Assembly (NCBI GenBank): GCA_964016885.1
Contig: OZ024742.1
Location: 83,700,001-83,764,000, forward strand
DNA: 64,000 bases
Direction of reading: 5' to 3'
Origin: Eledone cirrhosa
Taxonomy: Eukaryota
A program made the translations under genes and the position numbers. The notes below the pieces were generated by a model, which saw nothing but the letters and a program-made list of their open reading frames with translations, was not told the origin of the DNA and did no database searches. Positions 30,854-53,354 of this stretch are shown here, one piece after another; within the stretch, counting starts at the first letter, position 1; every line of letters begins with the position of its first letter.

Positions 30854-30976
30854 TCCACTGATGATTTATAAGTGCCCACCTACATATATTCTTACAAGAA
30901 ATTATGTTAGGCTTCTACATAAACTGGATACATTCTCCCAACTTGTAGAAAACTTATAATGAAACAATTGTTTGGA
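30854..30976 (+). ncRNA. Type I hammerhead with branched insertion in loop II
   Basis: tcca CTGATGA t ttataagt [~80 nt, two hairpins] acttataa t GAAAC aatt GTT tgga. Confidence 0.75.
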
Positions 30977-31847
30977 AAGAGAGATATATTTTAATTTTAA
31001 TTATATCTCATATAAAATAATACAACTGGCTTTCCACAAAATACATATAGTTAGCACCCCAAACACTAAATTGGGATTATACTAACGTATATCCTAATGT
31101 TTGTTGAGTGAGATGGTTACTAGTCGGAGTTTAGCTTAAAGCTTTCTCTGTTATTGTATTAAATTTTTACTCTTGATTTGGCCAGAGATTTATATTTCCA
31201 GATGCCTTATAAACGTAACTTTCCGTATTTATTACTGTTATGAGATATTGTTTGTTATTTAGGTATCACTTCTCTGTTTTTAGCCTAAGAAAATATCTAT
31301 ATGCGTGTGTAATTAATACATGCATACATTTATTTTTTTTTAATTAATTGAGTTCCTAACACGCAGGATTGATAATGTTTTTGAAAAAACTAATTAACCC
31401 ACGTGTATTAAATATTTTACTCTTAATTTGGCCAGAGATTTATATTTCCAGATGCCTTTTAAACGTAACTTTCCGTATTTATTACTGTTATGAGATAGTG
31501 TTTGTTATTTAGGTATCACTTCTCTGTTTTTAGCCTAAGTAAATATCTATATGCGTGTATAATTAATACATGCATACATTTATTTTTTTTTAATTAATTG
31601 AGTTCTTAACACGCAGGATTGATAATGTTTTTGAAAAAACTAATTAACCCACGTGTATATTATTTTACTTTTCTCGTGACTCGCGATTGTCTCCCTTTTC
31701 TGCTTCGTGACGCTATGATATTTCCTCAGTCTAAAGACTGCTGGAATTTCAAATTTGGCGGTCATTCGATGCGTGAAGGGATAACTTAGCGGACACGAAA
31801 AATAACTGCGGTAAGAAATTTTTTCTTATATCAAAGTTTAATGGGCA

Positions 31848-31970
31848 TCCACTGATGATTTATAAGTGCCCACCTACATATATTCTTACAGGAAATTATG
31901 TTAGGCTTCTACATAAACTGGAAACATTCTCCCAACTTGTAGAAAACTTATAGTGAAACAATTGTTTGGA
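31848..31970 (+). ncRNA. Second tandem copy of the expanded hammerhead
   Basis: Same fold as 30854-30976. Confidence 0.75.
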
Positions 31971-32359
31971 AAGAGAGATATATTTTAATTTTAATTATAT
32001 CTCATATAAAATAATACAACTGGCTTTCCACAAAATACATATAGTTAGCACCCCAAACACTAAATTTGGATTATACTAACGTATATCCTAATGTTTGTTG
32101 AGTGAGATGGTTACCAGTCGGAGTTTAGCTTAAAGCTTTCTCTGTTATTGTATTAAATATGTATGTATATATATATTTGATATATATTTATCCTTATCGA
32201 ACCCTCTTTGGATTTTAGTCTTCAAATTTATTATTATTACTATATATATATATATATATATATATATATATATATATATATATATATATATATATATATA
32301 TATATGTGTGTGTGTGTGTGTGTGTGTGTGTGTGTGTGTGTGTATAGAAGATCCGCATA

Positions 32360-32758
32360 TGACCCCTTAGCCTTCGTCAAGGCAGAATTCTAGGAGAAAG
32401 AAAACTCTGATATAACACCTGCAACTCTGATGGTATCCAATGATGTTGACTTGTTCTTTTTGGTAAACATCATCTTGGTTAAGAGAGTGGGACTGGCTTT
32501 GTGCAGTGCCTTTGCTCACTATAAAAGCTTCATGGCACAGGCATTGCTTTGTATCTGGAGATCTCTCTGCACTTGTCGTCACATGGTACTATGGGCCCAG
32601 CACTATGTGTCAATAATTGTCACAAGTGTAGTGTTTGTATCAGAGTTTTCAAGTCGCTGGCTAGACTAAAATGTCACACTCGTTCAGCGCATCGGTAAGG
32701 TTTCTCCTACATGGATATAAAGTAGTGGCCGTACTCGAAAACGAGTTGGCAGCCACCA
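32360..32758 (+). mobile_element. Truncated copy of the ~600 bp non-autonomous element, opposite orientation
   Basis: Reverse complement of ~14800-15200; ends ttggcagccacc then (AT)n. Confidence 0.8.
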
Positions 32759-48744: not shown

Positions 48745-48950
48745 GCACCTGTGACAGTGGAGACTTGCGGCTTCTTGCATGACAACATCCCTACTCACTG
48801 CTATCGAAGCGGATTTGGGTGCCACCCGTGCCTATCCCACGAGATGGAGTGGCTGTTCCAGCTCGTCTCTACCGCCGTCCGCCAGGGCAATGTCTTCTCC
48901 ATCCTGTCGCCCGGGACCACCACTAGGCGTAGGATACGATGGCAGTCTTC
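48745..48950 (+). pseudogene. 3' fragment of a CRE-like RLE retrotransposon
   Basis: APVTVETCG...EWLFQLVSTAVRQGNVFSILS, followed by (CT)n(CA)n. Confidence 0.55.
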
Positions 48951-51900
48951 TCTCTCTCTCTCACACACACACACACACACACACACACACACACACACAC
49001 ACACACACACACACACACACACACACATATATATATATTTATATATGTAATTGACTATTAATTTAACCATTATACCGAGAATAATTTTTTATTAGTTTTT
49101 GAATTCAGCAAAGAAATTTATCAGATTTTTGTTGAAAGTCGAAAAATATCTGTGTATGATATTGAAGTTAGGTACCCGTTTACATTATTTTTAAATATTC
49201 TTACTTACATTTTTGTTTAAAATTCATATTATTCATTCTTAGATTTAGTTATACCATGTAGTATTATATCATGATTTTATAATTGATAAAATATTTTTGT
49301 TTCATTATATATTTTCAAACATTGTTATAATCACTAATTATCTATGTATTTTTGTAGGTTATGATGTAAATTTTTCGTTGAATAGGAAATTCAGAGGCGA
49401 CGAAGAGGAGTTTCAGTTAGATCTTGTCAACAGTTTTCATACGCTTTAGATACGCAAGTCTCCGATATCCAAATGATTAAATGTTAGCAGAAGGCCACCA
49501 AGGAATCGTCACCTGAATGCGACCCAGTCCCCTGAGAGGTGTTTCTTCTCTGAAGACTTTCTGCTGTCCAGCTCTCCTGGGAGTTTTTTACCACATTTTT
49601 TACAACTTGGTCTTAAGATAAGAAGTATAAAGAATGAATCAACAGTAAAATAGCTGTTGCATTCTAAACTCGATATTGTCTTCCATTGCAGTGATTTTTT
49701 TACAAAAATATAATCTCAAATATTTTTTAAGGGGTCAACATCAAGCTCTGTGGAGATGGCGCTTGGTTTTCATGTTATGTTTTTGGTCTCCTTTTATGGA
49801 CTTTCTTGGTTGATTTGTTTGGTATCTGTGTGGATATTTTATTTGAGATTGTTATTTCAACAAGAATTGTGTCGTATGTATGTATATGTGTGTGCGTGTG
49901 TATATGTATATGTGTGCGTGTAAGTGTGGGGATGACTGTATTTACACATGTAGAAAGCACTACTCTAAATGGTGTGGGAAAGTACAATAAGAGACACATT
50001 TATGCAAATAAATTTTATTTAAAAAAGACAGAAAAAGAAGAAAACAAGATTTATTTGAACAAAACTATGAAAAGGTATGGAGAGATATTTTGATATGTCT
50101 TTATTTAATAGAAGATAGAAAATTAAATTAGATAACAAACAAAGAAGGCTGTTTTATTCTTCAAGAAGTCTATCTTGAAACATTGGAAGACATCTCAAAG
50201 TAATTCACGAGAACTTAACTAAATTATACCTATATAGTCAAAACCATGTGTACCTATTTACTAAAGTCTATGAGAGTGTGTACATGTATGAGTATATGTG
50301 TATATTTGTTTGTGTATGGGAGTAAATTTATATATTTACATAGACACACGCATATATACATATATATATATATATATATATATATATATATATATATATA
50401 TATATATATATATTTATTTATATTTATATATATATATATATTTATATTTATATATATATGTATATATATTTATATTTATATATATATACATATATATATT
50501 TATATATATATATATTTATATTTATATATATATATATTTATATTTATATATATATATATTTATATATATATATATATATATATATATATATATATTTATA
50601 TTTATATATATATATATATATATATATATATATATATATATATATATATATATATATATATATATTTATATATATATATTTATATATATATATATATATT
50701 TATATTTATATATATATATATATATAAACATTATAGAGAAATGTTTGTGTGGTGTGTATGTGTATACATATGCATGAGCATATGTATTTGTGAATATAAC
50801 ACAAATATGGGCGTGTGCGCATGTCATGATATATATTTATGATTGTGCATCTGCATCTGCATCAGCATGGGCGCGTGTGTCACTGTGGTGTGTGTGTGAG
50901 TGTGTGGGGGGCGGTGTATATGCGTGTGTATGCGTATATGTGTGTGTATGTGTGTGTTTATGCTTTTTCTTGCCTTCCATCTAGTCAGGCTACCAACCTT
51001 ATTGATTTGTATAACCTAGAAACGATAGAAAAAGTAAAAGCTTTCCACCTTCCAGTAGAAATCACAAGTGCCAATAATATCTGGCGCCAACGTCCATTCA
51101 TCAGACTGTATATCCTGTTGGCTTCCTTCATACCGCCAGAGACGGCGGGGGAAGACCGTTCTTGCAGTTTGTTAAATCCCAGTCAAATGTTAAAAGCAAA
51201 TTGCCAAATATTATTTTTCAAATCACTCTACAAGTTTCAACTGACTTTTCGTGCACCATATGTTGCTGGTGGTTTTACAGAGCGGAGAGGAGGAGTAGGG
51301 TGTGTCGGAGTATGTGAGAGAGAGAACAGGGGAGGTGGAGAGAGAGTATGGTGGAAAAGAGGTAGGGAAGGAGAAGAGAGACAGATGGTGGAAAAGAGGT
51401 AGGGAAGGAGAAGAGAGACAGATGGAGGAAAAGAGACAAGGCAAAAGGAGGGGGAGAAATATGAAAAAAAAAGGAATAATGAAGATAGATAAGGAAAAGA
51501 TGGGGAATGAATCTTTACGGAGTTACCTAGAATGGGAAGAAAGAGAAATTCATGCACACACGCGGACATATATATGGTTAAACAATACATATATATAAAT
51601 ATATATATATATAAATATATATATATAAATATATATATATATGAATATATATATATAAATATATATATATAAATATATATATATAAATATATATATATAA
51701 ATATATATATATAAATATATATATTTATAAATATATATATATAAATATATATATATAAATAAATATATATAAATATATATATATAAATATATATATATAA
51801 ATATATATATATAAATATATATATATATATAAATATATATATATAAATATATATATATAAATATATATATATATATATATATAAATATATATATAAATAT

Positions 51901-53209
51901 ATATATATAAATATATATATAAATAAATATATATATAAATATATATATATAATATATATATATATATATATATATATATATATATATATATATATATATA
52001 TATATATATATATATATATAAATACATATATATATAAATATATATATATAAATATATGTATATAAATATATATATATATATATATATATATATATATATA
52101 TATATATATATATATATATATATATATATATATATATATATATATATATATATATAAATATATATATATATATATAAATATATATATATAAATATATATA
52201 TATAAATATATATAAATATATATATAAATATATATATATATAAATATATATAAATATATATATAAATATATATATATATAAATATATATATAAATATATA
52301 TATATATAAATATATATATATAAATATATATATAACAAAGAAGACAAAATAAAATAAACAAACAAGCAAATAAATAAATAAATATATAGACAGACTGAAT
52401 AAAAAATGGCGTAGACATACAACACAACAGGAGGAAAAAATATAACACCACTGACGATGTTGCAGATGTGCAACGAAAGATTTATGTAAATTATGCAAAC
52501 TATATATATGTGTTTGTGTCTATATTGTATCTGTATTATTTTTGACCGTCTGTCAGTCAATGGCAACATTGAGGACCGATTAAGTTAGATCGCAGATATA
52601 AAAGACAGCGAGAAGCGAAAACCAACCAAACAGTGAGTGTGTTCTGTTATTAATTCTGGCAATATTACACAAATATGACCCTCTCCAAGTATAACAATAT
52701 ATATATATAAATATATATATATAAATATATATATATATATATATATATATATATATATATATATATATATATATATATATATATATATATATATATATAA
52801 ATATTTATATATATATATATATATGTATATATATATATGTATATATATATGTGTGTGTATATATATATGTATATATGTATATATATATATATATAAATAT
52901 ATATATATATAAATATATATATATGTATATATATATATATGTATATATATATATAAATATATATATATATATATATAAATATATATAAATATATATATAT
53001 ATATATATATATATATGTAGATAAATCTACCAAGAGTTTACGGTAGTGTCCAATCCGTATGAAGAACTCAATGTATTCCGGATATCATGGAAAGAAAAGA
53101 TGTAATGAAAATCCACTTTCGGTGAAAGATAAACGGTATACAGAGTCAAGATAAAATATTAAACAAATAATGAACAAACAATTCCTTATATTAAACAAAA
53201 AAAGTTCAC

Positions 53210-53354
53210 TATTTAACGATCGTTTCTAGGGTATATATGTGTTATAATTGGTATGCATATTCAACAGATCTATGTACAAAATTATACAAAATTATACAAA
53301 TTATCAAGATTAAATATACATACCTAACACATATATACGCCGTCTTCAGAAATA
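53210..53354 (-). ncRNA. Type I hammerhead with ~120 nt rod-like stem II
   Basis: Minus: tattt CTGAAGA cggc gtatatatgtgtt..ggtatgtatatttaa..ttgaatatgcatacc..aacacatatatac ccta GAAAC gatc GTT aaata. Confidence 0.78.

Follow-up and report, generated by a model that had tools for sequence, protein, structure and literature searches.

Hammerhead motifs with long, paired domain II arms in Penelope-like and non-coding elements of Eledone cirrhosa

The subject of this work is a stretch of 64,000 nucleotides from the genome of Eledone cirrhosa (GenBank assembly GCA_964016885.1, contig OZ024742.1, forward-strand positions 83,700,001 to 83,764,000), hereafter called the window and numbered from its first letter, together with the hammerhead ribozyme motifs that it holds. 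These motifs lie in repeats of four families, named A to D here, three of which (B, C, and D) belong to Penelope-like elements (PLEs) and one of which (A) is non-coding. In every family the hammerhead core is accompanied by a paired arm that stands in the place of loop II, and the arms of B, C, and D bear a recurring internal loop in which an A opposite a G is followed by a bulged base and a U-A pair (the A.G/bulge/U-A loop).

Six hammerhead motifs and the elements around them

The window descriptor required the boxes CUGANGA and GAAA, a stem III that pairs around a loop of 4 nt, UH, and four or more Watson-Crick pairs in stem I. Exactly six motifs answer to it, and the same descriptor found no match in 150 block-wise dinucleotide shuffles (a first version, requiring pairing at the first bases of helix II, where these motifs are mismatched, had returned none). 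The initial annotation had pointed to the same six motifs, with intact boxes, a stem I of 4–5 bp, a minimal stem III with a palindromic loop, and some 90–120 nt between the boxes. All of this was borne out: the inserts measure 90, 93, 96, and 116 nt, and stem I is longer only in D, once G-U pairs are counted.

Core coordinates run from C3 to H17. Family A has two plus-strand copies, one at 30858..30972 (96-nt three-way domain II, GUU triplet, 4-bp stem I) and its tandem partner 994 nt downstream at 31852..31966 (96-nt insert). Family B occurs on both strands, at 39474..39585 (minus; 93-nt rod, GUC triplet) and at 41832..41943 (plus; 93-nt insert). The other two motifs are on the minus strand, namely that of family C at 42174..42282 (90-nt rod, GUU) and that of family D at 53215..53349 (116-nt rod, GUU). 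Since the A copies are tandem duplicates and both B motifs are arms of one inverted insertion, the six motifs amount to four independent observations.

CUGANGA, GAAA, the A15.1-U16.1 pair, and an NUH triplet (GUU in A, C, and D; GUC in B) are present in all six. Stem I has 4–5 Watson-Crick pairs (at least 8 pairs in D if G-U is included), and stem III is made of an A-U and a C-G pair around the palindromic loops AAUU, ACGU, and GAUC, the stretch 15.2–16.2 being palindromic in 6/6. Three helices surround the core and the ends lie in helix I, which is the type I layout; helix III has 2 bp as a monomer and 8 bp if intermolecular. The G10.1-C11.1 closing pair is absent from all families and its place is taken by U.U (A), A.A (B), or C.A (C and D). 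Published Hydra hammerheads likewise show extra unpaired bases at helix II, at least in the part of Craig et al. (2021, PMC8557442) that is used here.

The minimal hammerheads (min-HHRs) of metazoan PLEs have a helix II of 7–8 bp with a short loop, and the descriptor given for them in the portion of Cervera and de la Pena (2014, PMC4209133) drawn on here admits a stem II of at most 7 bp (3–7) and a loop 2 of 3–10 nt. The window motifs pass the min-HHR tests for the core, for the palindrome, and for the position in a pseudo-LTR (pseudo-long terminal repeat; B, C, and D), and they fail the length limits for stem II and loop 2. Rfam gave no hammerhead match over the whole window at gathering score, and no hammerhead family over 39000–42500 (a region holding three of the motifs) with E up to 5. 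The expectation that standard descriptors would miss these motifs was therefore correct; the accompanying phrase that known PLE hammerheads have a "very short stem II" was loose, as it is their loop that is short.

Family B is represented in the window by a 5'-truncated inverted pair at 39407..42106 (39407–40709 minus, 40709–42106 plus), with the final ~82 codons of its open reading frame (ORF) at the junction. Family C is a 5'-truncated copy at 42099..43862 (minus) that keeps the C-terminal half of the reverse transcriptase (RT) and the endonuclease region (ORF 42696–43868), and family D is a 5'-truncated copy at 53014..58754 (minus) with part of an ORF at 57014–58754 and a 3' untranslated region (UTR) of ~3.6 kb. 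No Pfam domain scored on the truncated C and D ORFs of the window. Full-length elements were found at loci L031 (B, 773 aa), L123 (C, 760 aa), and L124–L126 (D, 813 aa, 6.6-kb units). In these, two motifs on the same strand enclose an intact single ORF at a distance of 3.5 kb (B), 3.0 kb (C), or 6.6 kb (D), and thus stand for both pseudo-LTRs, the upstream motif ending ~210 nt (B and C) or ~350 nt (D) before the ATG. By alignment, the proteins have RWK (B and C) or RWR (D), DKT (not DKG) in all, a CxCx5C linker, and a C-terminal endonuclease; copies of all three families terminate in (TA)n and are inserted into (TA)n. The same marks are given for the Hydra clade by Craig et al. (2021, PMC8557442, in the part used). 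Judged by their sequences, the full-length copies of B, C, and D are intact PLEs with Hydra-clade motifs. Copies of B and D end 43–67 or 159–202 nt past the cleavage site.

The four families had initially been described as PLEs unrelated in sequence. For the non-coding DNA the lack of relatedness stands, as the flanks of B, C, and D do not align among themselves; their proteins, on the other hand, are 42–64% identical (B-C 64%; B-D 47% in alignment A1 and 42% by tblastn), so that the three are related lineages whose non-coding DNA no longer aligns. The PLE setting was right for B, C, and D, with motifs around PLE ORFs; for A no link to a PLE ORF was found. Between their hammerhead and ATG, B and C have a putative 5' UTR intron in common (L031 7057–6985, minus; L123 1910–1989, plus), whose conserved 21-nt acceptor region is their only alignable non-coding stretch.

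Further long-arm groups lie directly downstream of related endonuclease ends, namely E (77–83 nt), G (94 nt), and subfamilies of D (101–108 nt). In quick RT trees (homologues taken in were 31–39% identical, and one 129-aa fragment was left out) B, C, and E form one clade (SH-aLRT 99) and D another (100), and both join a weakly resolved group (93–95) with G and two lineages that have domains of 12 and 31 nt. Two short-domain families, W60 (13 nt) and S1 (11 nt), fall outside that group. The long arm may have arisen once, with losses, or it may have two or three origins; the trees fit both.

Family A occupies 30197..32160 (plus) as a non-coding partial-tandem element that ends in (TA)n ~190 nt past the cleavage site. 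Elsewhere it consists of non-coding units of ~745 bp, mostly in partial tandems, with a fixed 3' end and one type I hammerhead per unit. Among the A and A-related loci examined, no parent ORF could be linked to family A or to its older related family. Two candidate parents were rejected: an ORF near an A-related copy (L426) has its own hammerhead with a 31-nt domain, and a 4.6-kb repeat (L424) is a local duplication. Another group, F, also yielded no parent ORF at the loci examined. Its subgroups F5 and F3 (L324–L353, L444–L473) are mostly elements of 160–200 bp with a hammerhead and a short tail between (TA)n tracts. F5, whose 5' end is fixed, is a ~170-bp non-coding element that begins 33 nt ahead of the core, ends ~56 nt beyond the cleavage site, and retains both the arm and the loop motif. 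A start just upstream of the ribozyme does hold for F5; as a rule for most copies it was discarded (2/30 in D1, 6/26 in D2, 0/12 in A, and 0/4 in B, by a measure that is inflated by shared inverted flanks). The non-coding elements likely derive from PLEs.

The fold of the arm and its recurring loop

Basal helix II extends over 7–14 bp, and no part of a motif is more stable than its arm. Of the two shapes first proposed, a two-hairpin branch (three-way junction) is formed only by A, and the arms of B, C, and D are rods, though interrupted ones. Folded alone, the inserts have z-scores of -4.3 (A), -3.7 (B), -4.5 (C), and -7.8 (D); once the core and flanks are added, A, B, and C fold less strongly (z -1.1 to -2.1). 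A 10-nt tandem duplication sits at the tip of the D1 arm (53270–53300, minus), and some copies hold extra units, so the tip grows by slippage. The predicted resting folds of B (41824–41943, plus) and D (53215–53356, minus) can pair the U-rich strand of stem I and CUG with the AGAAA box, which would be an off state for the monomer.

Selection on the fold was examined in alignments that left out deletion variants and compound matches (5/39 in E, 9/38 in D, and 8/32 in F, which then gained 7 related rows); the covariation shuffles treat sequences as unrelated, and the tested structures were drawn from the same sequences. In group E (34 sequences, mean identity 76%) 90.9% of the cells are paired, versus 31–41% in slid controls, and two-sided changes occur in 10/21 pairs, which 0/500 shuffles match. 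The internal branches of its tree hold 2 double changes, 14 pair-keeping single changes, and 6 breaks (p = 0.006 versus random re-pairing). Family A with its older relative (27 sequences) shows 94.9% pairing, with 0/500 shuffles on cell counts, and D (29 sequences) 95.6%; B and C are too young for covariation testing. The compensatory changes in three alignments argue that the arm is a selected structure.

In the recurring loop an A faces a G; next come a single bulged base, a U-A pair that is invariant, and a pair that varies (G-U, G-C, U.U, or C-G). It is found in 12/21 arm representatives, namely B (twice), C, four of D, four of E (two of these twice), and two of F, versus 14 of 645 background tiles from the window. 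Among loops of this shape, those that are A.G with U-A number 15/23 in the arms and 14/381 in the background hairpins of the same tiles. The motif is absent from the reverse complements (0/21) and from the reversals of the representatives, and it appears in 0–5% of shuffles. In the plus-strand B motif the two loops lie at ~41858 with 41914 and ~41870 with 41901, in C one full loop (~42257 with 42203) is joined by a G.G variant, and D has a loop at ~53302 with 53270. The paired loops of B and E are ~7–8 bp apart, and B, C, and E have a common plan of basal helix, bulge, loop, 7–8 bp, second loop, and tip. The A, U, A, and G of the loop are fixed in 33–34/34 sequences at both copies in E, where the bulged base varies, and the loop positions are fixed in 27–30/32 in F and in 27–29/29 in D, yet 39/101 columns of D are equally conserved. 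The loop does not appear to fit the kink-turn, SECIS, or sarcin-ricin consensus. Together with the compensatory changes, the recurrence and conservation of the loop support the reading of the insert as a selected, structured domain and fit a protein-binding cargo.

Possible roles of the arm

The reading that we favour, though only tentatively and at a little under an even chance, is that of type I minimal hammerhead motifs whose loop II has been replaced by an arm of 60–116 nt on which the element's own RT-endonuclease protein would dock. The docking is suggested by the invariant unpaired bases that lie within covarying helices and are repeated at a fixed spacing. The predicted probability of an active monomer is low, at 3e-6 (A), 2e-5 (B), 2e-3 (C), and 1e-2 (D), values comparable to those of short controls (8e-4 and 2e-4). 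When a second molecule completes the core by way of the 8-bp palindrome, stability is greater, yet the complex is still 2–6 kcal/mol less favourable than the best fold open to those strands, so cutting probably requires a dimer plus help. Dimeric and trimeric constructs are reported to have low activity in the portion of Cervera and de la Pena (2014, PMC4209133) used here. In the proposed course of events, two motifs in a tandem transcript would pair via their palindromic stem III and cut, and the cut would release a unit-length RNA bearing the arm at its 3' end. Once bound to the A.G/bulge/U-A loops, the element protein would aid folding of the core or control cutting, as the protein of the anole PLE does for its hammerhead, and reverse transcription would take uncut or re-ligated RNA as its template, given that genomic copies continue past the cleavage site. 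In the anole PLE, copies likewise stem from an uncut or re-ligated template and the hammerhead cleaves only with the element protein (Frangione et al. 2024, PMC11167929, as far as the part used describes it).

Several points weigh against this reading. The loop motif was defined after these sequences had been seen, it is missing from family A and from groups G, H86, and J47, and it represents about three phylogenetically independent cases, since B, C, and E form one clade. Covariation is limited in D (6/32 pairs, reached by 18/500 shuffles) and more so in A (only 5/26 pairs, reached by 121/500), and RNAalifold returned no consensus for group F and little for unrefined clusters. Given a GUU triplet in every family except B, and the lack of G10.1-C11.1 throughout, cutting itself may be slow. 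Nor does every such element need the arm, for short-domain lineages amplify too (W60, with 150 close matches scored, and 4,418 short matches in the genome scan described below), and family A amplifies without the loop (3,289 first-look candidates). Finally, reverse transcription would begin at the 3' ends of copies, and these are situated 45–200 nt beyond the cleavage site, away from the arm.

Other readings need no element protein. An arm acting in RNA alone might pre-fold helix II, or its loop might dock on stem I or bind Mg2+, replacing the missing contact between loops I and II. The 7–14 bp of basal helix II and the stability of the arm speak for this, as does the fact that tertiary contacts of helix II speed canonical hammerheads (PMC4209133 and PMC3088659, in the portions used); we nevertheless consider it unlikely, since the loops are well beyond the basal helix and distant from a stem I of 4–5 bp, and the arm does not consistently raise the predicted share of active monomer (A and B lie below the short controls, C and D above). 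Binding of a host protein instead of the element's own, which might serve to transport or stabilise the element RNA or to localise it in the germ line, strikes us as less probable again. The same loop recurs across lineages whose proteins are only ~42% identical, which would suit one conserved partner, and AU-rich bulged rods are transport signals in other transposon RNAs. Against this, the sole experiment made directly with a PLE hammerhead implicates the element protein (Frangione et al. 2024, PMC11167929, in the part used). That the arm is tolerated filler or a DNA-level part of a promoter, lengthened by AT-rich slippage in loop II and selected only to stay folded away, we think improbable to a slightly greater degree. 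A graded series of lengths, the slippage duplications at the D tip, the lack of the loop motif in A, and the promoters contained in pseudo-LTRs (PMC6765202, portion used) would agree with it; filler, however, predicts neither invariant unpaired loop bases beside covarying pairs nor the absence of the motif from the opposite strand.

Two further explanations seem to us very improbable, and about equally so. Part of the arm could be a retained spliceosomal intron, with splicing yielding a compact hammerhead. Splice-like signals occur in the D arm (GUAUGU, a UGAU similar to a branch site, and a U-rich UAG) and in B, where excision of a GU-AG stretch would yield a helix of 8 bp and a loop of 4 nt, and PLE introns are normally retained in genomic copies (PMC4209133 and PMC8557442, in the portions used). 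The would-be introns, however, are 42–69 nt long and base-paired (in D with the flanking exon), and their UAG is explained by the loop motif, which in group F reads GAG. Spliced genomic copies were not found (3 matches for D versus 3 in the control, the 2 checked being unrelated, and 0 for B) in a search that is weak because PLE introns are retained, the junction of the putative 5' UTR intron also giving 0. Four runs over the full-length 5' region of D held no splice-type joint, in contigs that are DNA-like and of unrecorded type and so uninformative on expression and splicing. The arm could also be double-stranded RNA on which ADAR or Dicer acts, with a regulatory effect on the element. D does form two long AU-rich helices (z -7.8), and pooled variant sites in domain II show 19 A>G versus 8 T>C with shared variants included. 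This pooled excess fits the tolerance of G-U pairs, however, and the rods of B, C, and E are interrupted by loops every 5–8 bp. The initial suggestion of an ADAR substrate finds no support in private changes in 72 unbiased copies (8 A>G versus 11 T>C, p = 0.82; two of them in only 1 copy).

To return to docking of the element protein, a wider version of it may be put forward, which we regard as doubtful: a radiation of Hydra-clade PLEs with a natural protein-gated hammerhead, whose modular arm with one or two undescribed loops would be bound by the telomerase-like element protein to switch cutting on or off, and in which short non-coding parasites would retain the arm to recruit that protein. 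In PLEs the hammerhead cuts poorly by itself, and in the only system reconstituted it depends on the element protein. Because young elements whose ORFs are intact carry an arm that is conserved, open to mutation, and equipped with a discrete loop, the link between hammerhead and protein can be tested directly. If the loop binds the telomerase-like protein, it would provide structural studies with a small RNA-protein module and be the natural equivalent of engineered protein-responsive hammerheads.

Abundance in the genome and comparison with known systems

The genome scan used one pattern in a 3.0-Gb, microsatellite-rich assembly, varied only the gap between the boxes, and took the reversed pattern as control; it demands a C-G pair in stem III, so that other variants were missed, and its counts are pattern matches, not proven ribozymes. 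Gaps of 4–30 nt gave 4,418 matches (control 36), 31–59 nt 685 (24), 60–90 nt 5,453 (28), 91–121 nt 16,421 (30), and 122–152 nt 379 (32). Gaps of 60–121 nt together thus account for 21,874 matches (control 58) versus 4,418 short ones, a ratio of ~5:1. Among the first 30 loci per bin, a stem I of at least 3 pairs is present in 29/30 (91–121 nt), 19/30 (60–90 nt, a bin that holds some compound or unrelated matches), 18/30 (31–59 nt), and 20/30 (4–30 nt). As long arms outnumber short ones to this extent and go unseen by Rfam and the published descriptor, the number of ribozymes in other invertebrate genomes may be underestimated. All four families of the window are young, with best matches 97–100% identical and 314 to 3,289 first-look candidates. 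Domain II lengths form a series of 11–13, 20, 31, 47, 57–63, 77–83, and 90–116 nt, and a metagenome scan yielded one relative with a domain of 29 nt.

The window also holds short-domain, hammerhead-like motifs with one core change each at 47063–47093 (plus), 39206–39244 (plus), and 29717–29747 (minus), with domains II of 12, 20, and 12 nt; the one at 47063–47093 sits ~800 nt past a broken Hydra-type ORF (44166–46255). A short hammerhead-like motif at 59190–59240 (minus) and an ORF at 60161–62302 (minus) belong to W60, a young family of Hydra type with other loci at L293–L322. The first box of this motif reads CAGAAGA in 35/35 matches (30 loci) and its stem III is longer; the core may be inactive, or a variant, and have become fixed in a family that amplifies. 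Many head-to-head inverted pairs, of long and short families alike, join 0–50 nt upstream of CUGANGA (for example G000:C1: 23113918/23113930, 25210499/25210509, and 17640204/17640205). Other repeats in the window are a LINE-type 1062-aa ORF with endonuclease and RT domains (32878–36066, minus), an RT-encoding repeat in three copies (3743, 12533, and 17412, plus), and a frameshifted PLE fragment of another clade (26982–28469, plus) with a Pfam GIY-YIG match, whose linker looks to be of the Neptune type.

The recurring A.G/bulge/U-A loop is new here. Two surveys, Lunse et al. 2017 and Arkhipova et al. 2017, reportedly cover many PLE hammerhead variants and could include such cases. Neither this loop nor domain II arms of 60–116 nt in PLE hammerheads are described in the portions used of PMC4209133, PMC8557442, PMC11167929, PMC3088659, PMC6765202, PMC7229834, PMC6155905, PMC10085705, and the 2026 retrozyme preprint (bioRxiv 10.64898/2026.07.22.740005).

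The comparisons that follow hold as far as those portions describe each system. The discontinuous Clec2 hammerhead (PMC6155905) is also a natural hammerhead in which a very large insert defeats standard searches; unlike the motifs here, it is of type III, has the insert in helix I, and lies in a host 3' UTR and not in a mobile element. Family A resembles the non-LTR retrozymes (Cervera and de la Pena 2020, PMC7229834; bioRxiv 10.64898/2026.07.22.740005) in its non-coding tandem units with one type I hammerhead each, but its unit is ~745 bp versus ~300–390 bp, its tandems are mostly partial, and its domain II is three-way. Among PLEs, PLE-X1_sMoe of Selaginella (PMC8557442, File S2) has an enlarged domain II with a 9-bp stem and a 35-nt loop (~53 nt), flagged as non-canonical; it is one family, about half as long in this domain, and from a different clade. 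With the Hydra-clade PLEs (Craig et al. 2021, PMC8557442, File S2) our elements share RWK/RWR, DKT, CxCx5C, a single ORF with a C-terminal endonuclease, (TA)n, and, in the hammerhead, extra unpaired bases on both sides of helix II. They differ in unit length (3.0–6.6 kb versus "generally <3 kb") and above all in domain II, as all 26/26 Hydra rows of File S2, including one Octopus family, have a stem II of 3–7 bp and a loop 2 of 3–10 nt. Finally, the metazoan PLE min-HHR (Cervera and de la Pena 2014, PMC4209133) is likewise of type I, with CUGANGA and GAAA, a helix I of 4–5 bp, a basal helix II of 7–9 bp, a palindromic helix III region, a pseudo-LTR position, and thousands of dispersed copies; its descriptor allows a domain II of at most ~26 nt, whereas the motifs described here have one of 60–116 nt with a conserved internal loop and without G10.1-C11.1.

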